Source: Candidatus Latescibacterota bacterium (GTDB lineage: Bacteria > Latescibacterota > UBA2968 > SICM01). From it: 64,000 nucleotides of DNA. The position numbers were made by a program, and so were the translations under genes. The notes below the pieces were generated by a model. It was not told the origin of the DNA. It did not search any database and saw only the letters and a list, made by a program, of their open reading frames with translations. Below are positions 25,059 through 41,586 of the stretch, piece after piece. How positions within the stretch are numbered: position 1 is the first letter of the stretch; the number at the start of each line of letters is the position of its first letter. The DNA lies in NCBI GenBank assembly GCA_965217865.1, contig CBDCJO010000002.1:4896001-4960000 (forward strand), written 5' to 3'.

Positions 25059-26096
25059 GTGGATGAGATCAAGGTGATATTCGATGGTGTGCCGACGGGT
25101 ACTCTGGAGGAGGTTGGGTTGAAAGAGGCAGATGTGGAAGTTCCCCTGGAGCGGTTTTGCGCGTCTGTGGGGGCGGATCTGGACGTATCAGAGGGTAAGA
25201 CGGTTGTCTGTTCGGGAGATCTCTGCGTCATGGTGGAGGTCACGCGCACTCATGAGGGGAAGTCCTTTACCTGGTTATCCGGATTGACCCAGGCGCTCGG
25301 ACTGACCTGGGTCTTTCAGGAGGGGGACCGGGAACTCCGGTTGACAACGGAAGTTGAAAGGACAACCGGGGTGAGTCTGCGGGTGGGTGACCTCGCACCC
25401 GAATTCACGCTTCCGGACCTGTCCGGGCGGTTGTGTTCTTCCAGTTCGTTCAGGGGAAGGAAATCCGTCTTTTATGTCTGGGCTTCCTGGTGAGGCTGTC
25501 GAGGCCAGCTGCCCGGGTGGCAGTCCTTCTTTTCAAGGTTCCAAAATTCGATCCGGGTGGTGGTCATCGCGGCGGATGCGCAAGGTCCCGAAGTGGTGAA
25601 GCCGTGGGTCGAAGGGATGGATTTCCAGACACTGGTCGATCGGAACAACCTCCTCGGCAAGTTGCTGAACGTTAAATTCGTCCCCTATATCATCCCTGTG
25701 GATGAAAAGGGGCGGCTTTGCCGGGGGATTGCCGGTTTCGACATCCAGGAGGCGAATCTCAGGGATGACCTTGAGACCTGGGCTGCCACGGGGATGATTC
25801 CCAAGGCCTGGCATGAGGCGGAAGGCAAAAAGGTCCCATCTTGGAACCTGACACCGGATGGCCGGGAGGCAGACGATAGGTATCAGCGTGCGGTCAGGCT
25901 GCTGGATGAGGGAGAGCGGGAGGAGGCGATTGCCGAACTCTACGCGGCTTTCAGACGGGACCCGCAAAACTGGATCATTCGTAAACAACTATGGGCTGTG
26001 GAACATCCCGAGGCTTTCTACAAAGGTCCCGTGGATTACGATTGGCAGCGACGGAGGCAACAGGAGGAGGACAAAAACGTGGAGCGTATCTCTTAA
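25059..26096 (+). CDS. Selenocysteine-containing redoxin (ResA/TlpA-like, WAxxUGC motif) with a C-terminal TPR-like helical domain, about 345 aa
   Basis: Track ORFs 25035..25493 and 25557..26096 are in the same frame. APEFTLPDLSG...WASW[TGA]GCRGQLPGWQ reads through with no other stop. A hairpin follows the TGA. Confidence 0.85.
25494..25530 (+). promoter_or_regulatory. Putative bacterial SECIS element
   Basis: Stem CTGCC/GGCAG with G-containing loop CGGGT about 20 nt after UGA 25491-25493; lower pairing GAGG/CCTTC. Confidence 0.6.
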
Positions 26097-26098
26097 AG

Positions 26099-26303
26099 CG
26101 TGAAGCGGTCAAAACCCGTGGATCGTTATTCGTGAATCGGGGTTCGGAAGTCGGGGGTCAGAGATCAGGGATCGGAGGTCAGGGAAGTCAAAACCGGTAG
26201 TCAGGGGTCGGAAGCCAGGGAAAATGAAGATTGAAAATCGAAGAGATCCAGAATAAGCCCTGAGGTGTTCAAATATTCAATTTTCCGATATTCAATCCTC
26301 AAT
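26099..26303. repeat. Heptamer repeat arrays, partly in inverted pairs
   Basis: cggaagt cgggggt cagagat cagggat cggaggt; GATTGAAAATCG...CGATATTCAATC inverted pair. Confidence 0.7.
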
Positions 26304-26315
26304 GAAGTTTTTGAG

Positions 26316-26341
26316 GTAGGAGCCGCCTTCTGGCGGCGAAT
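26316..26341 (+). repeat. GTAG-family REP element
   Basis: GTAGGA-GCCGCC-TTCT-GGCGGC-GAAT. Confidence 0.55.
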
Positions 26342-26436
26342 ATGAAAAAGGACGTGAAGCGGGAAACCCCATATTCTTCAGGGTTTCGACGAGGTAAGCT
26401 TCACGATTCACGTTTTTCTTCAGGAGATCCTTTAAG

Positions 26437-27054
26437 ATGAATGGGAAATTTAGCCCGATCGGGAATTTTCTCAGTTCAAAAAAAGCAATTTTTGCGATCC
26501 TGGGGATAGTGTTGCTTTTTCCCGTGCAAAACCCTCAGGCCATGAAGGTCGTGGCCTTAAGACTCCAGGAGATGGTCGGACGTGCGGATCGCATCTTCGT
26601 CGGCACCTGTCTGGACGCGAAAAGCGAGGTCGATCCAAACCGAGGGTTTGTGGTAACAACCTATACCTTCTCGGTCGTTCATCCGGTTAAAGGAGATGTT
26701 GAAAAAACCGTACTGTTTCGACAGTACGGAGGAAGGACCGCGAAACGAAGATCGTTTATCGACGGCCTGCCGGTCTACCGACCGGGTCAGGAAGTCGTGC
26801 TCTTCCTGAAACCGGTGAGCGAATGGGGTCTCACGAGCCCTGTGGGCGTATTTCAGGGATGTTTCGGAGTTACCAGATCCAGGGCGGGGAGGCGTTTTGT
26901 GGTCAACAGCCCTTATTCCCGTCACCTTTCCGGCCAGGCATTGTTTCGAACAGCGCACGCCTTTTCCAAGCCCGCCCGACTGTCGCCCGAGGGTCGCATG
27001 GATCTTGAGGATTTCATCGAATTGATCGTGGGTATGGTAGAGGATGGTGAATAA
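26437..27054 (+). CDS. Exported hypothetical protein coupled to the downstream metalloprotease
   Basis: Signal peptide; ADRIFVGT...FRQYGG...PVYRPGQEVVLFL...PVGVFQG; overlaps the next gene. Confidence 0.75.
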   Translation: MNGKFSPIGNFLSSKKAIFAILGIVLLFPVQNPQAMKVVALRLQEMVGRADRIFVGTCLDAKSEVDPNRGFVVTTYTFSVVHPVKGDVEKTVLFRQYGGRTAKRRSFIDGLPVYRPGQEVVLFLKPVSEWGLTSPVGVFQGCFGVTRSRAGRRFVVNSPYSRHLSGQALFRTAHAFSKPARLSPEGRMDLEDFIELIVGMVEDGE

Positions 27055-28771
27055 GCGAAGAAACCATGGGACTACCATCAGGGAATCAAATCGAAAGCCA
27101 GATCGTTGTTGTTTCGGATTTCGGTTTCTTTGCAACGGATTCTTGATCTTAGTCCTGATCATCCTGTTGTCCTCGCCCGTCTCGGCCTACACCTTCCTGG
27201 TTGTGGACGAGACCGACGACGGGCCTGCCGCCTATCGATGGGACCCTAAAGAAAAAGTGGAATATCTGGTGGACGCGGGGAATCTGAGCCCGTCTATCAA
27301 TAACGCCGACGGGGTGAACCTTATCCAGAGCGCCTTCGATCGATGGGAAAATGGGACATGGAACGGCCGGAAGGTCATGGATCTGGATATAAGCTACGCT
27401 GGATTAACAAACATTGAAATTACGAGGAATAATTTTGAACTGTTCGAGGGGCAATCGGTCATCATCTTTGACAGAGATGGCTCGATCATCGATGCCCTGC
27501 TGGGAGGTGGAAGCTTTGTACTCGGTTTCGCGGAGGTGACAAACGTTGACGACGGGGAGGGAACTATTACGGCCGCCCGCGCTTTCTTTAACGGCACGAC
27601 CGCGGACAGGGCGGATCTGGGGGACTTCGAAGCGACCGTCGTCCACGAGTTGGGGCACTTCCTGGGTTTGGGGCACACCTATGTCGCCCAGGAGTTATTG
27701 AACGGGAACCCTTCTGATGACGGGCCGATACCGACGATGTATCCGACGAGCCTGGACGACGATACACACATGCGGACGCCTGAGTTGGATGACCTCGCGG
27801 GCATGGGCGATCTTTACGGATCGACGGAATTCCGGATGGAACTGGGTATTCTCGCGGGGAATGCCTCCTGGCCAGAGGATCTGCCGGTGCTTGGTGGGCA
27901 CGTCGAGGCGAGAAACCTGTCCGAAACCGGGATCCGGATCGGCGTTATTACGGGCTATCTGCAGGATGGGACCGGAAGTTATCGTATGGTGGGCTTACCG
28001 CCCGGGGATTACAAGGTGACGCTCGAGGCGATCCCGTTTAGTTTCGAAGGCGCATCCGTCATCGGACAGTATGATCCGCCGCTCCGGGATCTATTTCCGA
28101 CCTTGACTCATAAAACGCCGTCGGATACCTCGGACTTTACGACGGTCACCGTGTCAGCGGACAAGGTTTCGACCGTAGATTTTGTCATTCCCGAAGAGAA
28201 CTCAGGCTTCACGGTCGATCGGTTCTCAAGACTCAGTCCGATCTCTCTTGACGACGATGAGGTCACGACAGACACCCTGATGGTACCAAGGGAGATAATG
28301 ATCTCAGACTTTAAGGTCTTTTTAGACATCGTACACACGTACATCGGGGATCTCAAGATCAGTCTCACATCCCCTTCAGGGCGGACGGTTCTCCTGGTCT
28401 CGCAAGTGGGATTTTCCGGCAACCTGATCGAGACGACGTTTACACGGGAGAAGGTGCCGGCACTTTCGGGGTTTATAGATGAAGGCGCTGAGGGGACGTG
28501 GACCCTGGCCGTTGCGGACACGGCGCCTGAGGATGTGGGCACGCTTCGAAGGTGGTGGATCACGATCCTGAGCGAGGGGGCGACGACGCTCCAATCGGAC
28601 TTTAATTCGGACGGAGAGGTGGACCTGGATGATTTCTTCCTGTTTGCTGCGGTCTTCGGAACGGAGACGGGGGAGGCGGGGTTCGATCCGAAGTTCGACC
28701 TGAGCGTTAACGGAAAAATCGACTTCGACGACTTTTTTATGTTTGCGGCGAATTTTGGAAAAAAGGTTTAA
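27044..28771 (+). CDS. Secreted metzincin (matrixin-like) protease with proprotein-convertase P domain and a dockerin/EF-hand-like tail
   Basis: HELGHFLGLGH with Met-turn PTMYP; HTYIGDL.ISLTSPSG...GTWTL.V.D (P domain); DFNSDGEVDLDDFFLFAAVFG and DLSVNGKIDFDDFFMFAANFG. Confidence 0.88.
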   Translation: MVNKRRNHGTTIRESNRKPDRCCFGFRFLCNGFLILVLIILLSSPVSAYTFLVVDETDDGPAAYRWDPKEKVEYLVDAGNLSPSINNADGVNLIQSAFDRWENGTWNGRKVMDLDISYAGLTNIEITRNNFELFEGQSVIIFDRDGSIIDALLGGGSFVLGFAEVTNVDDGEGTITAARAFFNGTTADRADLGDFEATVVHELGHFLGLGHTYVAQELLNGNPSDDGPIPTMYPTSLDDDTHMRTPELDDLAGMGDLYGSTEFRMELGILAGNASWPEDLPVLGGHVEARNLSETGIRIGVITGYLQDGTGSYRMVGLPPGDYKVTLEAIPFSFEGASVIGQYDPPLRDLFPTLTHKTPSDTSDFTTVTVSADKVSTVDFVIPEENSGFTVDRFSRLSPISLDDDEVTTDTLMVPREIMISDFKVFLDIVHTYIGDLKISLTSPSGRTVLLVSQVGFSGNLIETTFTREKVPALSGFIDEGAEGTWTLAVADTAPEDVGTLRRWWITILSEGATTLQSDFNSDGEVDLDDFFLFAAVFGTETGEAGFDPKFDLSVNGKIDFDDFFMFAANFGKKV

Positions 28772-28820
28772 TGTGTATTTCTTGAGAAGTGAAACATATA
28801 TATTCGACTGGGGATAAAAC

Positions 28821-28849
28821 TTGACTTCGTTATGTCAAAGGCCTACTTT
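28821..28849 (+). promoter_or_regulatory. Sigma70-type promoter of the leader/GNAT unit
   Basis: TTGACT-17 nt-TACTTT; a TTGAC-N8-GTCAA palindrome overlaps the -35 box. Confidence 0.6.
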
Positions 28850-28902
28850 CTTAGAACTCTATACAGGCTAAAAGCCTTTCATATTTAGGATTGAACAAAG
28901 AG

Positions 28903-29052
28903 ATGACCGATTACACTACATTCTATCACGAGACGAGGCCGATGGCCGGTCTGACCAGGGGCGTATGCCTGCTTATGGATTGGACCGCGGACCAGGCTAA
29001 TTCAACTATCGTTACTGTCCACGATAGGAAACGACGGTGGGTGGGTCACTAG
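28903..29052 (+). CDS. Putative 49-aa leader peptide (uORF)
   Basis: MTDYTTFYHETRPMAGLTRGVCLLMDWTADQANSTIVTVHDRKRRWVGH*; its last codons carry the antiterminator strand. Confidence 0.5.
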   Translation: MTDYTTFYHETRPMAGLTRGVCLLMDWTADQANSTIVTVHDRKRRWVGH

Positions 29053-29076
29053 GATAACCTGAAAATCCAGTAATCG

Positions 29077-29113
29077 AACCCGCCGTCGAGTCAGATTCGA
29101 CGGCGGGTTTTTT
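29077..29113 (+). terminator. Intrinsic terminator / attenuator immediately before the GNAT gene
   Basis: 13-bp stem AACCCGCCGTCGA/TCGACGGCGGGTT with a T tract ending 1 nt before the ATG. Confidence 0.85.
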
Positions 29114-29114
29114 A

Positions 29115-29693
29115 ATGGTGGATATATTGAAACGACACGACATCACACTTCAGTGCGAGTTAACCGTCTTACGCCCAATGTCGGAGGGTGATTGGGAACG
29201 CCTTCTGCGTTGGAATAACGATCCCGAGGTGCTATATTTCGCCGAAGGTGATGAGGTCATTGATCGAAGCGCGGATGAAGTCAGAAAGTTGTATCGTTCG
29301 GTGTGCAGGAATGCCTTCTGCTTTATGATTGTGTATAAAGGCGTACCGATCGGCGAGTGCTGGCTGCAGAAGATGAACCTGGAGAGAATCCTTAAGGCTC
29401 ATCCCGGTATGGACTGCAGGCGGATCGACCTGATGATCGGTGAAAAGGATTTTTGGGGACAAGGTATCGGAACTCAGGCAATCGAACTGCTCACCAGTTT
29501 CGGATTTGAAGAGGAAGGGGCAGACGTGATCTTCGGCTGTGACGTTGCGGACTACAATCCAAGAAGCATCAAGGCGTTTCAAAGGGTGGGGTTTGAAGTC
29601 TGTAATGAAGTCAGGCAAACTCAAGGGAGCAAGGCCGAGTCGTGTTATGACCTGATCCTGACACGTGAAAAATATATGCAGAAAGGGATTTGA
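29115..29693 (+). CDS. GNAT N-acetyltransferase (RimJ/RimL or AAC(6')-like fold)
   Basis: LRPM...WNNDPEV, IDLMIGEKDFWGQGIGT, NPRSIKAFQRVGF. Confidence 0.88.
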   Translation: MVDILKRHDITLQCELTVLRPMSEGDWERLLRWNNDPEVLYFAEGDEVIDRSADEVRKLYRSVCRNAFCFMIVYKGVPIGECWLQKMNLERILKAHPGMDCRRIDLMIGEKDFWGQGIGTQAIELLTSFGFEEEGADVIFGCDVADYNPRSIKAFQRVGFEVCNEVRQTQGSKAESCYDLILTREKYMQKGI

Positions 29694-29763
29694 AAGTCGG
29701 ATATGGGTGGGACTGAATCTTGAGCCTCCAAAATTCCACCCGTGATCAACTGAGGGAGGTATT

Positions 29764-30771
29764 ATGGAAAAATCAAAAAAGAAGGTCCATTGGGGCATTC
29801 TCGGTACCGCGAACATCGCAAAAAAAGTTGGGCGGGCGATCCACCGGGCAAAAGGGACTGAATTGACCGCCATCGCCAGCCGTGACGAGGTCCGCGCCCG
29901 GAACTGGGCGGCCGACCACGATGTGGATCGTGCATACGGGAGCTACGACGCCCTCCTGGACGATGCGGAAATAGATGCTGTTTACATCCCCCTGCCGCCG
30001 TCCATGCACCTGGAATGGACGGCCAAAGCGGCTGAAAGGGGCAAACACGTCCTCTGTGAAAAGCCCCTGGCGGCGAATGCCGAAGAGGCGCTTGCCATGG
30101 CCGAGGTCTGCAAAAAGAACGATGTGCAGTTGATGGACGGTGTCATGTGGATGCATCACGAACGCGCAGAGATGATGAAGAAGGCCGTCGTCGACGGCGC
30201 GCTGGGGGAGCTGCGACGTGTGACCTCGGCTTTCTCCTTTAACTGGGGGGAGCTTCCTGTTGACAACATCAGGATGAAACGAGAGCTCGCGGGCGGGTGT
30301 CTCGGTGACCTGGGTTATTATTGCCTGCGCGCCATCCTCTGGACTTTTGGCGACCTACCAACCAGCGTTTACGCCACCGCCCGTTTTTTAAACGATGTGG
30401 AATTCAATCTGTCGGGAGTTCTCTGGTTTCGAGACAAACGGATGGCATCCTTCGACAGCGCCTTCGATACGACGAGCAGGCAATGGTTCGAGGTCGCAGG
30501 GGATGCGGGTTCTCTTGTGTGCGACGATTTCGTGGTTCCCAAAAGCGAAAAGAAGGCGAGGTTCTGGATTCACGGAAAAGGTGACGAAGATGGGAAACGA
30601 GAGGTCAAAGGCTGTGTCCAGGAGGTGCGGATGATCGAAAAATTCTCTCGCATCGTGCAAACCGGACAGCTCGAAGAGAGATGGCCGAGGATGGCGATCG
30701 AAACCATGCAGGTGTACGATGCGCTGCTTAAATCGGCAGGTGAGGAAAAAAGGGTGGAGATGGGGGGGTAG
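29764..30771 (+). CDS. Gfo/Idh/MocA oxidoreductase
   Basis: WGILGTANIA, DAVYIPLP, GKHVLCEKP, GGCLGDLGYY. Confidence 0.92.
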   Translation: MEKSKKKVHWGILGTANIAKKVGRAIHRAKGTELTAIASRDEVRARNWAADHDVDRAYGSYDALLDDAEIDAVYIPLPPSMHLEWTAKAAERGKHVLCEKPLAANAEEALAMAEVCKKNDVQLMDGVMWMHHERAEMMKKAVVDGALGELRRVTSAFSFNWGELPVDNIRMKRELAGGCLGDLGYYCLRAILWTFGDLPTSVYATARFLNDVEFNLSGVLWFRDKRMASFDSAFDTTSRQWFEVAGDAGSLVCDDFVVPKSEKKARFWIHGKGDEDGKREVKGCVQEVRMIEKFSRIVQTGQLEERWPRMAIETMQVYDALLKSAGEEKRVEMGG

Positions 30772-30875
30772 GAAATGAAAAATGAAAAATGAAAATTGAG
30801 AAATAAGCTTCCTCACTACCTCCAAAGTTGCCAAGCAGATTCAACGACGATCCTAAAGAGATCCAGATTTGAGAT

Positions 30876-31646
30876 ATGTATCTGTTTACCGACACAGACC
30901 TTGCCACTCAGCGGCTGAAATACCTCGCTGAAGTTTATGAAAAATCCACGCGTGAATTTGTTGTCGATGTGATCAAGCATCATCCCCAGTTGCTTTTGGA
31001 CCTTGGGTGTGGTCCGGGATTTACCACGCATCTTTTGGCGGAATTGACTCGATGCGATCGGGCTGTGGGGATTGATAATTCAGAACATTTCATCAAGTTG
31101 GCGGAACAAACCCGGACGGACCGGGTTGATTTCTGTCTTCACGACGTCACGTCCGTCCCATTTCCAATGACCCCGTGTGACGTTCTCTTTTGCCGGTATC
31201 TCCTGACCCATTTGAAGAATCCTCTGGACCTAATCGAAAAGTGGAGCACCCAGTTGGGCCCTACAGGGCTCCTGGTGATAGAAGAGGTGGATTGGATTCA
31301 TTCGGAGAATGAGATATATATCAGCTATCTCAATATCGTAGAAGCGATGCTCGCGGATCAATCTAGCTCGCTTTATGTAGGGCCGGTGATTAACGGACTG
31401 GAAGGCACGGATCTTCTGAAGAAACAATCCAGCCGAGTCGGGAGCCTGGCCGTTTCGAACCGTCAAGCGGCCAATTTATTCCATCTGAATATCCAATCCT
31501 GGAGGCATCAGTCTTTCATAAGGACTCACTATCGGATGGAGATGATCGATGGACTGGAAAGAGACTTGAAAATCCTGGCCGAAGATTCAGGCCAGGTGAG
31601 CGAAATTGAATGGGGCTTGAGGCAACTCGTGTTTGAACGAATATGA
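30876..31646 (+). CDS. Class I SAM-dependent methyltransferase
   Basis: LDLGCGPG, GIDNS, HDV. Confidence 0.88.
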   Translation: MYLFTDTDLATQRLKYLAEVYEKSTREFVVDVIKHHPQLLLDLGCGPGFTTHLLAELTRCDRAVGIDNSEHFIKLAEQTRTDRVDFCLHDVTSVPFPMTPCDVLFCRYLLTHLKNPLDLIEKWSTQLGPTGLLVIEEVDWIHSENEIYISYLNIVEAMLADQSSSLYVGPVINGLEGTDLLKKQSSRVGSLAVSNRQAANLFHLNIQSWRHQSFIRTHYRMEMIDGLERDLKILAEDSGQVSEIEWGLRQLVFERI

Positions 31647-31659
31647 TTGAAGTTTCATT

Positions 31660-32445
31660 ATGTTAAATATGAAGAACTCGCTGACACAATTTTACGATCG
31701 ACTTGCCGAGGACTACCATCTCATTTATCAGGACTGGGATCAGGCCATTCATCGACAAGCCCGGGCGCTGGACAACATCATTCAGGATCGTTTCAATGCA
31801 TCAAAAAGATCGTTATCCGTTCTAGACTGTTCCTGCGGCATCGGGACGCAGTCGATCGGTTTGGCTCTGCTCGGGTACAGGGTTCGCGGGACAGACTTGA
31901 GCACAAAAGCCGTTGAACGTGCGAGGAAGGAAGCGAACCGGTTGGGGGCTGTCCTTACTTTTGATGCGGCTGAAATTTGTGAGCTTGAGGACCGTATCGA
32001 GGGACTGTTCGACGTGGTCATAGCGTGCGACAAGTCGCTGCCACACCTTTTGAACGATAAGGATTTGCTTCAGGCCACGCGCGTCATTCGGTCGAAGTTA
32101 AAGCCCAACGGCTTGCTGATCGCGAGTATCTACGACTATGATTCAATCTTCGAGGAAAAACCCACCACGACGCCTCTAAAACTTTTTGATGATTCGGGGA
32201 AAAGACGGATCATACTTCAGATCTGGGATTGGAATTCGGATGGGCGCACCTATAAGTTCCAGCATTTTGTGATTAAGGAGGATGGGGAGGGGTGGCAGAC
32301 GACTTGTCGCACGGCGGAGTACAGGGCCCTTCTGCGAAGTGAACTCAGCGAGATTTTATGCCAGGCAGGATTTTCAGGGGTCAGCTGGCTTTTGCCTGAA
32401 ACATCCGGATACTTCCAGCCGGTTGTTACAGCGTTTAAACCTTAA
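31660..32445 (+). CDS. Class I SAM-dependent methyltransferase (glycine/sarcosine N-methyltransferase-like)
   Basis: FYD.LAEDYHLI, VLDCSCGIGTQ, DLS, SLPHL, LKPNG. Confidence 0.88.
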   Translation: MLNMKNSLTQFYDRLAEDYHLIYQDWDQAIHRQARALDNIIQDRFNASKRSLSVLDCSCGIGTQSIGLALLGYRVRGTDLSTKAVERARKEANRLGAVLTFDAAEICELEDRIEGLFDVVIACDKSLPHLLNDKDLLQATRVIRSKLKPNGLLIASIYDYDSIFEEKPTTTPLKLFDDSGKRRIILQIWDWNSDGRTYKFQHFVIKEDGEGWQTTCRTAEYRALLRSELSEILCQAGFSGVSWLLPETSGYFQPVVTAFKP

Positions 32446-32492
32446 GGTTCAAGTGGATGTTATAAACTGCTTTAAAATAGAAAAGGGATAAC

Positions 32493-33338
32493 ATGGACCA
32501 GGGTTCGATCGAAAGCCATTACACTGCGGATGACCTCGGAAATATCATCCTGGGCGCCTTAAAGGATATGGGAAAAGATATTGATGCCCTGTCGCAAGCG
32601 GATTTAGCCCCTGTCGACGAGTTTCATATCCGAGGAAGGGAGGCGACCGAGGAACTGTGTCAATTGACCCGGTTGAGCTCTGATCTTCAAGTCCTCGACG
32701 TGGGCTGTGGCCTCGGCGGATCGGCTCGTTTTCTGGCCTCCGAATATGGTTGCCGAGTGACGGGGCTGGATTTGACTGAGGCCTACTGCCGGGTTGCTTC
32801 GATGTTATCCGAAAGATTGGGCCTGGGGGACAAGACCGAATTCCGACACGGAAGCGCCCTGGATATGCCTTTCGGTGACGATAGATTTGACGTGGTTTGG
32901 ACCGAACACGCCCAGATGAATATCGAGGATAAACATCAGTTCTATTCGGAGATCAGTAGAGTCCTCAAACCGAATGGCCGTCTGGTGTTTCACGATATTT
33001 TTCAAGGTGACGGCGGAGATTTGCACTTTCCCGTACCGTGGGCGGACGATACTTCGATCAGTTCCCTCATCTCACCCGATTCGCTTCGGCCCTTGCTGGA
33101 TGGACTTGGCCTTTGTGCGGTTGAATGGAAAGATGTCACAAAGACGGCGATGGAGTGGTTCCGTAAGGCTACCGAAAGGGTCAGGCTGAGCGGACCTTCT
33201 CCACTTGGCCTCCATCTGTTAATGGGAAGAAACGCGGGTGTCAAATTTGAGAATATGACGCGGAACCTTCAGGAGGGCCGGGTTGCCGTCGTGCAGGCGG
33301 TTCTGGAAAAGGGAAGGATTTCTGGCGGTTCAAATTAA
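32493..33338 (+). CDS. Class I SAM-dependent methyltransferase (sarcosine/dimethylglycine N-methyltransferase-like)
   Basis: DEFHIRGREAT, VLDVGCGLGG, GLDLT, RVLKPNG. Confidence 0.88.
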   Translation: MDQGSIESHYTADDLGNIILGALKDMGKDIDALSQADLAPVDEFHIRGREATEELCQLTRLSSDLQVLDVGCGLGGSARFLASEYGCRVTGLDLTEAYCRVASMLSERLGLGDKTEFRHGSALDMPFGDDRFDVVWTEHAQMNIEDKHQFYSEISRVLKPNGRLVFHDIFQGDGGDLHFPVPWADDTSISSLISPDSLRPLLDGLGLCAVEWKDVTKTAMEWFRKATERVRLSGPSPLGLHLLMGRNAGVKFENMTRNLQEGRVAVVQAVLEKGRISGGSN

Positions 33339-33389
33339 TGTTCAGTTTAGGTGTTAAAATGGGATGAGCTGGGATCACAAGGCAATGAT

Positions 33390-34000
33390 ATGAAACTCGA
33401 ATCACAAAATTTGGATGATTATCTCAAGGCAACGCCTGTAATCGATTTTGATCATCCTGCGGTTTCAGGGAGAGCACGTCTATTGACCCGAAAATTTACA
33501 GATGATGCATCCCAGGCCAAAGCGCTCTTTGAATGGGTCAGAGACGAAATTCCTCACTCCCGAGATATCGGCGCAAAGGCGGTGACCTGCTCGGCCAGTG
33601 ATGTGCTGCTTCAAGGAACCGGGATCTGTTATGCAAAGAGCCATTTGCTGGCCGCGTTGTGCCGGGCTAAGAACATACCCGCAGGGTTTTGCTATCAGGT
33701 GTTTCAACGAAAGGGTTCATACAAGGGCCTCGGTTTGCACGGATTAAATGCCTTTATCTGAAAAACAGTGACCAGTGGATTCGTCTGGACGGGCGAGGTA
33801 ACACCGGAACGATTGATGCACAGTTCAGCCTGGGTGAAGAGAGATTGGCTTTTCCCGTGGATCCGGCAAAGGGAGAATTGTTCATCTATAACACGATTTT
33901 CGTGGATCCCGATCCCGGGGTTGTAAGCTATCTGAATCAGTTTGAGAACCTGGACGAAGCGTGGGGGGATCTGCCTTCCGATATAAGTAGGGAGGATTAG
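33390..34000 (+). pseudogene. Transglutaminase-like protein with a -1 frameshift (pseudogene or sequencing error)
   Basis: GICYAKSHLLAAL, HGLNA, then WIRLDGRGN in another frame. One extra T in TTT 33753-33755 restores a 203-aa protein with the Cys-His-Asp triad. Confidence 0.8.
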
Positions 34001-34069
34001 GCCAAGAACGATATATGGAAGTTGGTCTAATGATCTGGGGTAAGGATTAAACCTCAGGGAGTTGAGGAC

Positions 34070-34762
34070 ATGCCTTTCAAGACCGTTCTGCTTGACGCCG
34101 GCGGGATCATTTTAGACGAAGCTGAGCAGGAAGAGGCCAGGGCGGAGGTTATCGTTGAGGTCTTGAGAACTGTTGTGTCCGGATTCTGCAAAGACGATTA
34201 TTATTCTGATGTCGAAGAGGCTGTCCGCTGCTACTGTCCGGGGGTTGGCCCCTATGTGGTCTGGAAATACGCCGGGGGGGACTCGGTAAAATTCAATCGT
34301 TTATGGGATGGCTTCAATAGCCGGTGGAAGGAGGCCAGACCCCCAGTCAGGCTGTCAGCGGGAATCGACCGAGAAATCAGAAAGCTCGTCCGGCATTTCG
34401 ACCTTGCGATTGCCGGCCAGTATGGAGCAGAAATCCTGGATGCCTTGTCCCGTCACGACCTTCTGGACTGCTTCGTTCATCGGATCACTCAGGATGATTT
34501 CTCGATCACGAAGCCGGACCCGAGATACTATGAACAGATCCTGGCGAGAATCGGAGCCAACGCAAACGAGAGCGTCATGGTAGGGGATAGAATTGATAAA
34601 GACGTTATTCCGGCGAAACAGGTTGGCATGAAGGCGGTTCTTGTTCGGGTGGGCATACATAAGAACCAGCAGCCGAGGATGCCAACAGAGGTTCCTGACA
34701 TCGAACTGGGATCAGTTGTGGGACTTAGCGGAGCGATTTGCCGCATGGCGGAAGCTGAATAA
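34070..34762 (+). CDS. HAD-family hydrolase
   Basis: DAGG motif I variant, KPDPR, MVGDRIDKD. Confidence 0.85.
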   Translation: MPFKTVLLDAGGIILDEAEQEEARAEVIVEVLRTVVSGFCKDDYYSDVEEAVRCYCPGVGPYVVWKYAGGDSVKFNRLWDGFNSRWKEARPPVRLSAGIDREIRKLVRHFDLAIAGQYGAEILDALSRHDLLDCFVHRITQDDFSITKPDPRYYEQILARIGANANESVMVGDRIDKDVIPAKQVGMKAVLVRVGIHKNQQPRMPTEVPDIELGSVVGLSGAICRMAEAE

Positions 34763-34824
34763 CAGGGTCGGATTCAACGGCTGCGATGACCTCGACACGG
34801 TAGTTCAGGAAAGATTGTATTTTG

Positions 34825-35886
34825 ATGATATCCAGATTAAGCCGAACCTGTCGGATCGTTTGCTTGACCCTTTTATTCTATTTATTTTGCCCATCCCTTC
34901 CTGCAAGCGGAAAAGAGGGGATCCAGCGGGGCGTTTCTTGGGTTGCTTTCGGCAGGCCTATCACGGAAAATGATTTGCTTCCGCTTGTTTCTCACAATGT
35001 AAACTGGATTGTACAGACGCCTTTCGGTTGGCAGCGGAATTACAATTCAACCACGATCCGACTGAATACAGATCCGGATCACGCCGGTTGGGGAGAGAGT
35101 GATCTCGGGATTTCGGAAACCGCCAGACTGGCCAGAAAAGTCGGGATAAAGACCCTGCTCAAACCCCACATCTGGCTCATCAATCAGAGCGATGGAAAGT
35201 GGCGCGGTGATGTTAAAATGGACGATGAGTTCGGTTGGACCGAATGGTTTAAAAGTTACGGTCACTTCATCCTGCATTATGCACGGCTTGCAGAGGCTAG
35301 CGGCATCGAAGCTTTGTGCGTCGGCATGGAACTTCACACCTGCGCTGTCGAACGGGAGAAGGATTGGCGAAAGCTGATCGCTGCCGTTCGTGAGGTTTAT
35401 AGCGGTAAGCTGGTCTATGGGGCCAATTGGCACAGGGAATTTGAAGAGATTCCCTTTTGGGATGCTCTGGACTTCATCGGAATTCAGGCCTATTTTCCTC
35501 TGACAAAAAAAGAAAAGCCCTCTGTTGATGAGTTGGTAAAGGGATGGACATCTCATTTATCGGCGATTGAACGCCTTCAAGACCAGCATCAGAAGCCCGT
35601 TCTTATCACTGAAATCGGGTACCACAGCGCAGCGGATGCGGCGATCAAACCCTGGGAATGGAAGAGATGGGATTCGGCCCCAGCCGATAAAGTGGGATAC
35701 CAGACGCAAGCCAATTGTTATGAGGCGTTTTTTCGGACTTTTTGGGATAAGACCTGGTTCGCGGGCGTATATTTCTGGAAGTGGTATCCTGATTATAGAC
35801 GGATCGGAGCCAGATACGCCAGGGACTATACGCCGCAAGGCAAACAGGCCGGAGAAGTGATGCGTAAGTGGTTTGAATGTGAGTGA
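34825..35886 (+). CDS. Secreted glycoside hydrolase, GH113-like TIM barrel
   Basis: Signal peptide, LKPHIW, WRG, GMEL, YGANW, FWDALDFIGIQAYFPL, TEIGY, WKW. Confidence 0.8.
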   Translation: MISRLSRTCRIVCLTLLFYLFCPSLPASGKEGIQRGVSWVAFGRPITENDLLPLVSHNVNWIVQTPFGWQRNYNSTTIRLNTDPDHAGWGESDLGISETARLARKVGIKTLLKPHIWLINQSDGKWRGDVKMDDEFGWTEWFKSYGHFILHYARLAEASGIEALCVGMELHTCAVEREKDWRKLIAAVREVYSGKLVYGANWHREFEEIPFWDALDFIGIQAYFPLTKKEKPSVDELVKGWTSHLSAIERLQDQHQKPVLITEIGYHSAADAAIKPWEWKRWDSAPADKVGYQTQANCYEAFFRTFWDKTWFAGVYFWKWYPDYRRIGARYARDYTPQGKQAGEVMRKWFECE

Positions 35887-35910
35887 TCTGAGATTAAGGG
35901 GAGGAACCGG

Positions 35911-36525
35911 GTGAGGGATTTATTGTTGGGTGTCCTGGCGTCTCACGGCGGAAGCAACTTGCAGGCGATGATCGATGCGTGCCAAGACGGTCGTCTGAAC
36001 GCCAGAGTCTGCGTGATCATCAGCAACAACTCGGATTCCACAGCCCTTCGCCGCGCGAGGCGGGAAGGGATCCCGGGTTATCATCTGAGCGGGAAAACAC
36101 ATCCCGGATCCGGGGATCTCGATAAAGCGATTTTTGATGTCTTAAATCAACATAACGTTGATCTTGTCATCCTCGCTGGTTATATGAAGAAATTGGGGCC
36201 TCACGTCCTTTCTCGATATCACGGGCGTATCTTGAATATCCATCCGGCGCTTCTGCCCAGGTTCGGGGGGGCCGGGATGTACGGAAATCACGTCCACGAA
36301 GCTGTCCTGGAGGCCGGTGAAAGCGTGACGGGGGTGACGATTCATTTGGTCGACGAGGTTTATGACCATGGACCGATCATCGCACAATGTGAAGTCCCGG
36401 TTCTGGAGGGGGACACGGCAGACTCTCTGAGTGAGCGCGTTTTAAAACGGGAGCACGAATTCTATGTCGAGACCCTCCAGCGAATCGCTCAAGGAGAGAT
36501 TGAAGTTGCGGGTATTCATAATTGA
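35911..36525 (+). CDS. purN: Phosphoribosylglycinamide formyltransferase
   Basis: SHGGSNLQA, LAGYMK, NIHPALLP, GVTIHLV, YDHGPII. Confidence 0.95.
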   Translation: MRDLLLGVLASHGGSNLQAMIDACQDGRLNARVCVIISNNSDSTALRRARREGIPGYHLSGKTHPGSGDLDKAIFDVLNQHNVDLVILAGYMKKLGPHVLSRYHGRILNIHPALLPRFGGAGMYGNHVHEAVLEAGESVTGVTIHLVDEVYDHGPIIAQCEVPVLEGDTADSLSERVLKREHEFYVETLQRIAQGEIEVAGIHN

Positions 36526-36573
36526 GGTGTATCGTTTGCTGACTTGCAATTCAGACCGAAGGGAGGAACGATT

Positions 36574-37587
36574 ATGAGTGAACATCCAACCCCGGGTAAA
36601 ATCATTGAAGTTGGTCTTGGTTTTTGGGGCTCGAAAACCCTCCTGAGCGCCATAGAAATGGAGTTGTTCACCGAGCTGGGTAAGCATCCCGACAACCTGG
36701 AAACCCTTCGAGCGAGGTTAGGATTGCACCCTCGTTCGGCACGTGATTTTCTTGATGCACTAGTGGCTTTGGGTTTTCTACAACGAATAGATGAAAAGTA
36801 TCACAATACTCCTGAGACGGATATGTACCTGGACAAAGGAAAATCCTCCTATATCGGCGGATTGTTGGAGATGGCCAACAACCGACTCTTCGGCTTCTGG
36901 AACAACCTCACTGAAGCCCTCAGAACGGGAGAACCGCAGAATGAAGGAAAGCAGGGCGGCGAATCCTTTTTTGCTCTGTTATACGCAAATCCCGATCGTC
37001 TTAAAGGATTCTTGTCAGCAATGACCGGATTAAGCCGGGGGGGCAACCTGGCGATTGCAGAGAAGTTTCCGTGGAAGGATTACAAGACGTTTGCTGATGT
37101 AGGGACGGCTCAGGGAGACCTCGCCGTTCAGGTTGCCCTTGCCCATCCCCACCTATCGGGGACTGGGTTTGATTTGCCCGAGGTGGGCCCCATTTTTGAA
37201 GACTACATAAGGAAGAACGGTCTTTCTGAGCGCATGAAATTTGTTGGCGGGGATTTTTTCAAGGATCGCCTTCCTCAAGTCGATGTGATTATGATGGGTC
37301 ACATTCTTCATGATTGGAACCTTGAAGAAAAAAGAGGTCTCGTTCGGAAGGTATTCGATGCTATCCCGGAAGGCGGGGCTTTCATTGTGTTTGAATCCAT
37401 TATCGACGACGAACGTAAGGAAAATGTTTTCGGACTCTTGATGAGTCTGAATATGCTGATCGAGACGCCCGGCGGATTCGATTACACCGGAGCCGACTGC
37501 ATGAAGTGGATGAAGGAGATTGGTTTCCGAAAAACATGGGTGGATCACCTGGTAGGACCGGACTCCATGGTTATTGGGATCAAATAA
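36574..37587 (+). CDS. O-methyltransferase with dimerisation domain (acetylserotonin/COMT-like)
   Basis: [35 protein letters not shown]. Confidence 0.92.
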
Positions 37588-37701: not shown

Positions 37702-37729
37702 TTGACACAAGGTTATACGTTTATAGAAT
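37702..37729 (+). promoter_or_regulatory. Sigma70-type promoter
   Basis: TTGACA-16 nt-TAGAAT upstream of the HTH gene. Confidence 0.55.
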
Positions 37730-39687: not shown

Positions 39688-39765
39688 TCATTCACCAGGG
39701 GTGCCGTAAGGCTGAGAATATACCCTCGAACCTGATCTGGGTCATACCAGCGTAGGGAAAATGGA
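39688..39765 (+). ncRNA. TPP riboswitch aptamer (compact P3)
   Basis: AGGGGTGC...GCTGAGA..ATACCC..GAACCTGATC.GG.TCATACCAGCGTAGGGAA consensus, upstream of thiC. Confidence 0.95.
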
Positions 39766-39794
39766 CCGTGGTCGAAAACAGACCATTTTTTACG

Positions 39795-41586
<1,792 letters not shown>

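Follow-up and report, generated by a model that had tools for sequence, protein, structure and literature searches.

The leader in front of the GNAT acetyltransferase gene described here is one copy of a Latescibacterota-wide family of leader-peptide attenuators. It lies in a stretch of 64,000 nucleotides from a Candidatus Latescibacterota genome (the window), to which all coordinates refer unless a genome and contig are named. The original prediction for this region had recognised a switch coupled to an upstream ORF (uORF) but had missed that the element belongs to a large family, the other copies of which are amino-acid attenuators. Very probably the GNAT leader is a real attenuator. The explanation that we favour, with a probability of roughly 0.55, is that it senses a slowdown of translation in general, using the scaffold of an amino-acid attenuator, and opens an operon of the detoxification type.

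The sequence contains everything that had been listed for it: a promoter-like site, a 49-codon uORF and a 13-bp terminator whose T tract ends 1 nt before the GNAT start codon. The predicted promoter (28821..28849, plus strand) is of the sigma-70 type, with the -35 box TTGACT, a spacer of 17 nt and the -10 box TACTTT. Its consensus score is 8/12, and a consensus promoter scanner with a threshold of 9/12 misses it. The motif is shared with other family members, TTG[AC][CA]x-N16-18-TAxxxT being found 90-330 nt upstream of 41 of 80 members as against 3 of 80 downstream control windows. An inverted repeat, TTGAC-N8-GTCAA, spans the -35 box (28821-28838). The form TTGA-N9/10-TCAA is present at 7 of 42 family promoters compared with 9 of 710 such sites genome-wide and could represent either an operator or shared ancestry. 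The leader ORF (28903..29052, plus strand, ATG to TAG) includes all 20 amino acids, and an in-frame TTG is located upstream of its ATG at 28891. The region is presumably transcribed and the leader translated, with codons 1-39 as the predicted sensing window.

The antiterminator strand (29032..29042, plus strand) falls within codons 44-47 and is complementary to 29078-29088. Immediately 5' of it a 7-bp hairpin (29006..29027, plus strand) is predicted, and the antiterminator strand stays free in the nascent-RNA fold. The intrinsic terminator (29079..29113, plus strand) is composed of a 13-bp stem with arms at 29079-29091 and 29095-29107, a 3-nt loop and a T6 tract (29108-29113), which a single A separates from the GNAT ATG at 29115. 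The 11-nt match between the end of the leader and the terminator 5' arm, as originally described, is the sole case of an upstream complement of at least 10 nt among 64 strong terminators genome-wide, the next best reaching 9. The sequence GGCGGG (29102-29107) inside the terminator 3' arm, 7 nt before the GNAT ATG, may be the ribosome-binding site of this gene; an anti-Shine-Dalgarno sequence was seen in the 16S gene. No riboswitch had been recognised by eye, and an Rfam scan of 26000-32000 likewise gave no family at its gathering score, the best being ncS01 (E 0.021, 30.5 bits against a cut-off of 58) and Trp_leader (E 1.8).

As is general for leader-peptide attenuators, the uORF overlaps the antiterminator strand at a position which a ribosome can mask, and antiterminator and intrinsic terminator are mutually exclusive and covary. 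The predicted free energies are -29.1 kcal/mol for the antiterminator hairpin and -27.6 kcal/mol for the terminator. Since the terminator is what the complete transcript forms at equilibrium, the outcome of the switch has to be decided kinetically. Folding was performed with transcripts cut before the terminator 3' arm and an assumed ribosome footprint of -12 to +14 nt. Under this model the antiterminator has a probability of 0.92-0.97 when no ribosome is present or when the P site lies anywhere in codons 1-39; this falls to 0.69 for codon 40 and to 0.00-0.03 for codons 41-49. The model agrees with the earlier proposal that a ribosome which finishes the leader would mask the antiterminator (OFF) and one that stalls upstream would leave the genes ON. 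Similar behaviour is predicted across 78 family members, with a median probability of about 0.8 for ribosomes at least 11 codons before the stop and at most 0.03 from 9 codons on. In 72 of the 78 the last nine codons outpair the best of four upstream windows against the terminator arm. The ribosome-free probability does not separate the leader classes (0.875 vs 0.80), and the idea of a protector hairpin that distinguishes amino-acid from detoxification copies was rejected, as no difference was seen across the family leaders.

In the mechanism that we propose, a ribosome keeping pace would reach codons 41-49 and cover the antiterminator, letting the terminator form. If a ribosome were held up anywhere in codons 1-39, the antiterminator would remain available to pair with the terminator 5' arm, allowing read-through into the GNAT/methyltransferase cluster. 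Formation of the antiterminator would also free the probable ribosome-binding site of the GNAT gene.

A DNA search of 40 relatives found the antiterminator-terminator stretch in one genome (G001; 76% identity over 94 nt), where it precedes the gene for an ABC exporter ATPase. With a DNA pattern free of ORF information, 10 copies were found in 8 of 168 genomes of the phylum, all of them with a stop codon placed exactly 18 nt past the start of the antiterminator and in the same frame. Covariation was evaluated in an alignment fitted to the terminator only, in which the ten antiterminator:terminator-arm pairs are formed in 90.6% of 615 cells, compared with 28-65% in slid controls; three of its 71 rows are reverse-strand partial hits, and kin are not independent. 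Two-sided changes occur in seven of the ten pairs and the covariation score was reached by 0 of 500 shuffles. A conserved uORF position and compensatory changes had been suggested as a check, and both were found. Stop position, folding of the GNAT leader, family-wide folding and covariation all agree with a uORF-coupled choice between terminator and antiterminator.

The same DNA pattern matched 13 loci in a collection of species genomes and 23 in metagenomes, where only a stricter version was run. Of its loci outside the lineage, those in Acidobacteriota are leaders rich in His upstream of hisZ-hisG, one in a Verrucomicrobia genome is rich in Leu and lies upstream of leuA, and a further one lies upstream of an EamA-like gene. 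The pattern hits were used to build RNA models which, with 24 candidates scored per genome, had matches in at least 79 of 132 (R1, E<=0.01) and at least 97 of 132 (R2, E<=0.001) genomes of the class. Most copies precede ilvB, valS, the gene for aspartate--tRNA(Asn) ligase, aspS, asd, ileS or other amino-acid genes, and the leaders of these copies contain single-residue runs, in most cases of the cognate amino acid. Within the Latescibacterota class the core also precedes lysS, leuA/leuS, thrS, glnS, metG and his genes (labels beyond ilvB, valS, AspRS(Asn), hisG and metG come from reading the protein sequences). A minority of copies are located before ABC/MFS exporters or GNAT/methyltransferase runs. 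Four terminators preceding ABC genes (G000e, G002e, G089d, G092) are without a usable uORF at the family position.

Several individual loci deserve mention. The Acidobacteriota loci before hisZ-hisG (L022, L025, L026 and L030, together with metagenome loci among L142-L162) are His-run attenuators with the terminator/antiterminator core of the family. In the host genome, two tandem Asn-rich family attenuators (G000:C2:4543423-4543785; L214, L215) precede the gene for aspartate--tRNA(Asn) ligase. Another attenuator of the family (G000:C2:4570521-4570675, minus strand; L216) has a Gln run, with 6 Gln in 13 codons, and precedes the gene for a MetRS-like paralog, which matches PF09334 and, as a partial sequence, reaches 198 against an NCBIfam cut-off of 587. 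A Met-rich leader with a terminator is found before a metG-like gene (G000:C2:4202323-4202392, minus strand; L218), with similar cases in G087 and G091. No family attenuator was found at the host-genome ilvB and bacterial-type valS. The leader before asd (G000:C2, about 1955050-1955400) we take to be lysine-riboswitch-like, and the leader at about 39690-39800 of the window, upstream of a gene for a 572-aa ThiC-like protein, is presumably thiamine-riboswitch-like.

In three other genomes (G078, G093 and G089; L133, L134 and L136) ilvB and the genes for ValRS and aspartate--tRNA(Asn) ligase lie within about 10 kb, each behind a separate attenuator, and a transposase-like ORF separates the Val leader from valS in G078. 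His-rich leaders in G078 (G078:C1:5142227-5142370; L176) and G028 (L231) are followed by a methyltransferase gene, plus a GNAT gene in G078, and then by hisG, which in G078 is followed by metG. Genus g9 has 19-codon Gln-run leaders before glnS-like genes (L193, L201, L229). The leader conserved in genus g4 has about 60 codons and an antiterminator match of 11 nt; it lies before VOC, gamma-glutamyltranspeptidase-like and methyltransferase genes (L202-L210), and G119 has a relative of this leader upstream of an MFS gene.

The first gene behind the leader (29115..29693, plus strand) encodes a GNAT acetyltransferase (Acetyltransf_3) which, judging from profile and structure matches, is distantly AAC(6')-Ie-like. 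Its best NCBIfam and PDB matches are AAC(6')-Ie and AAC(6')-Im (E 3.5e-16; 4qc6, E 3.9e-16), but 59.8 and 59.1 bits are below the respective AAC(6') cut-offs of 450 and 340. A role like that of MccE or RimL, the detoxification of aminoacyl-adenylate mimics, was considered and dropped, there being no such entry among the six PDB matches. In the alignment, GNAT Asp105 and Asp143 correspond to Asp99 and Asp136 of AAC(6')-Ie, which hold the 6'-amine according to the accessible part of PMC5722643. In the GNAT, Ala43 and Cys64 take the places of Tyr34 and Trp54, the two aromatics that stack the sugar rings according to that text. The earlier description of the enzyme as AAC(6')-like holds for the best matches, and AAC(6') activity is no more than possible.

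The rest of the predicted transcription unit consists of nine genes on the same strand (29764..37587), which encode a Gfo/Idh/MocA oxidoreductase, three class I methyltransferases, a transglutaminase-like protein, a HAD hydrolase, a GH113 protein, a PurN-like formyltransferase and an O-methyltransferase. With GNAT as the first, ten same-strand genes extend over 29115-37587. The transglutaminase-like gene (33351-34000) is frameshifted near 33750, and a related contig in run X2 has an indel difference there. Between 29115 and 37700 neither a family-type promoter nor a perfect-stem terminator was found. A promoter of its own for the GNAT gene had been named as an observation that would speak against attenuation, and the next family-type promoter is only at 37702. 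Blanks in the terminator scan are weak because it finds perfect stems only and misses the terminators of G077c and G077e.

These two attenuators belong to G077, a genome from another family. G077c, whose leader is dissimilar to the GNAT leader, stands at the head of a 25-kb array of about 30 genes, all on the same strand. The array includes orthologs of the window's GNAT (65%), transglutaminase (52%) and GH113 (50%) genes, an AAC(3)-like gene (a Pfam match below the NCBIfam cut-off), a CPT-like gene, more GNATs, VOC and HAD genes and, about 24 kb downstream, an APH(3') gene above the cut-off. No family-type promoter was found inside it and the array is presumably co-transcribed. G077e, a paralog of G077c that was found after the idea of a general sensor had been noted, contains 19 of the 20 residues and directly precedes a GNAT gene and a 25-ORF same-strand run; GNATs make up 7 of the 12 proteins tested.

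It might be thought that such a link between GNAT and attenuator is fixed. Orthologs of the GNAT are present in 32 of 168 genomes, yet none of the 29 other ortholog loci scanned has an attenuator within 1.5 kb upstream, and in the wider surroundings of 11 further loci one was found only in G077, so a fixed link was rejected. The GNAT leader could be a relic or captured amino-acid or ABC-exporter attenuator, now drifting, behind which genes have accumulated and whose effect on the GNAT cluster is incidental. The closest leader homolog, in G001, controls the ABC exporter, and the GNAT ortholog of that genome sits elsewhere without an attenuator. Small genes hitch-hike behind other leaders as well, with methyltransferase and GNAT genes following ordinary leaders of the His or Val type (G078d, G028c, G094b, G095). 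The leader peptide, moreover, changes at about the neutral rate. This was seen in a relative of about 90% identity (runs X2 and X4, one sample; the comparison drew on 40 of 96 rows, which seem to cover the whole leader), in which 14 substitutions in the uORF give 10 residue changes where 9.6 are expected. In the same relative, however, the order of leader and GNAT is kept, the start, stop and frame of the uORF are preserved with no stop and no indel, and there is no change in the 10-bp core stem and one, at the G-U pair, in the antiterminator, as against six in the 25-nt spacer. Run-free leaders also head similar operons twice in another family. We consider a relic or captured switch unlikely.

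The amino-acid content of the leaders bears more directly on what is sensed. A first round comprised 78 leaders, namely 71 of 76 inspected model hits (five were dropped for want of a family uORF, for belonging to a different subtype or because no terminator was seen) and nine pattern hits, less two that had no usable start; start codons were picked by hand. Compared with proteome windows of matched length, residue diversity had z +0.74 for leaders of exporter/detoxification genes (n=12) and -0.74 for those of amino-acid genes (n=61), with p 2e-4, a value overstated by kinship. A second round of 36 out of 51 further hits and two g4 leaders, from which 15 duplicates or hits with no clear uORF or start were omitted, gave z +0.50 (n=8) and -0.53 (n=30), respectively (p 0.02). 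With both rounds combined, 75 of the 93 leaders of amino-acid genes have a residue that occurs four or more times between codons -22 and -9, as against one of the 20 leaders of exporter/detoxification genes. The GNAT leader, with a top count of 3, indeed has no amino-acid run, and the cognate codon run upstream of the antiterminator that marks classical amino-acid attenuators is absent from it.

All 20 residues were found in 3 of 20 exporter/detoxification leaders and in none of 93 amino-acid-gene leaders, including 20 with at least 43 codons, a pattern noticed post hoc in three leaders from few lineages. The three are the GNAT leader (P 0.018 against the proteome), G077c (P 0.009) and G099a, which precedes an MFS gene (P 0.043, the count depending on use of the first start codon). 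In the GNAT leader 19 of the 20 occur before the switch point, and all 20 are retained in the relative of about 90% identity (neutral P 0.22). Complete sets are not general: in the g4 leaders of about 60 codons before the VOC gene there are just 17-18 different residues, a number not above chance, and in ABC leaders 14-18. Nineteen residues are present in three amino-acid-gene leaders (G094a, G077d, G000f).

A leader with no single-residue run and with every amino acid present could therefore respond to ribosome inhibitors, to synthetase inhibitors or to a shortage of almost any amino acid. The suggestion that translation stress is sensed fits these data, and the run-free leader with all 20 residues, together with the G077 operons, makes a general signal likely. 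For induction by ribosome-targeting drugs the downstream genes give an indirect hint. A more specific alternative would be an attenuator for Thr, Ile and Val, derived from ilvB/valS leaders, in which shortage of these amino acids or inhibitors of their synthetases induce the cluster. Codons 35-39 read T-I-V-T-V, there are 8 Thr in 49 codons, the hydrophobic codons occupy the window of cognate runs in other members, and scaffold and leader are visibly related to the ilvB and AspRS leaders of the family; stretches of V/L/I/M occur in ABC leaders as well. Yet no residue exceeds 3 in codons -22..-9, two of the five residues at codons 35-39 change in the close relative, and G077c and G077e have no such stretch. 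Nor do the ten downstream genes include a biosynthetic or synthetase gene for branched-chain amino acids, Thr or any other amino acid of the leader. This alternative appears quite unlikely.

The leader might instead encode a drug-specific arrest peptide of the erm/TnaC type, responding to one antibiotic class such as macrolides at its R-K-R-R motif. It does end in a basic R/K-X-R/K motif, and such motifs have a role in macrolide arrest. In the folding model, however, a stall at codons 41-46 would mask the antiterminator and turn the genes OFF, the Arg codons are dictated by RNA pairing and recur in ilvB and AspRS leaders, and the peptide is not conserved. A conserved arrest peptide was rejected because the peptide varies about neutrally and an Arg-codon stall would close the switch; drug-specific arrest in general is very improbable. 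Most improbable is a stand-alone small RNA or small-protein gene, with the GNAT cluster transcribed otherwise: the unit does possess a promoter as well as a strong terminator, and shuffled versions of the region fold less well (z -3.6), but the GNAT ATG 1 nt past the T tract leaves no room for another promoter, none is found until 37702, and both the covarying antiterminator and the cognate runs of sister copies are as expected of an attenuator.

For a general sensor of translational slowdown, whiB7/wblC of Actinobacteria offers a counterpart. In the portions of PMC10274678 and PMC11550727 consulted, efficient translation of the uORF leads to the terminator and stalling by antibiotics or amino-acid shortage to the antiterminator; the M. 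smegmatis whiB7 uORF lacks only Cys among the amino acids, and what it senses is determined by its composition. The GNAT leader likewise combines a long and diverse uORF, with 20 of 20 amino acids, and a predicted choice of terminator or antiterminator. The available text of PMC7157823 describes a WblC regulon in which GNATs, methyltransferases, ABC/MFS exporters and tRNA synthetases abound, and the gene classes behind G077c and G077e match it as far as that text goes. Unlike whiB7/wblC, the GNAT leader sits directly on the effector operon, the first gene encoding a GNAT rather than a WhiB-family regulator and no transcription factor gene following, and it has an RNA scaffold in common with amino-acid attenuators. 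With the classical attenuators of the trp, his, thr, ilv and pheST type and their Latescibacterota counterparts it shares the topology, but not the cognate run or an amino-acid gene in the controlled unit.

Another parallel is bmrB-bmrCD of Bacillus subtilis, for which the accessible part of PMC4191407 describes ribosome-mediated transcription attenuation under ribosome-targeted antibiotics. The bmrB leader is of similar length (162 bp) and controls a resistance-type operon, which makes it a possible analogue, although it comes from another phylum and controls a single ABC exporter. Removal of the bmrB start codon lowered read-through according to the same part of that paper, whereas folding predicts the GNAT leader to be ON without a ribosome. 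The earlier suggestion that no translation would mean ON is a prediction of equilibrium folding.

Leader-peptide systems were, in the part of PMC2965389 available, known mainly from Proteobacteria and Actinobacteria at that time. A literature search judged by titles and abstract openings, with subscription journals thinly covered, found nothing on this attenuator family, and no paper in the collection contains both 'Latescibacter' and 'attenuator'. What is new here is the combination of a shared amino-acid-attenuator scaffold with a residue-complete leader. Tentatively, Latescibacterota may possess one portable attenuator cassette whose leader codons set its specificity. Leaders with single-residue runs would be amino-acid sensors, and leaders selected for all 20 residues would be universal sensors of translation stress which switch arrays of 10 to 30 antibiotic-modifying or detoxification genes directly, in the manner of WhiB7 without a transcription factor; the uncharacterized genes behind them would be candidates for new resistance chemistry. 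If the favoured explanation is true, a difference in leader codons has by itself retuned one RNA switch from sensing a single amino acid to sensing translation stress in general, and matched natural pairs would allow a direct test of how antibiotic-responsive attenuators arise from metabolic ones. A run-free, residue-complete leader would then provide a sequence rule for recognising inducible detoxification operons in this uncultured phylum, and the GNATs and methyltransferases behind such leaders would be possible drug-modifying enzymes.
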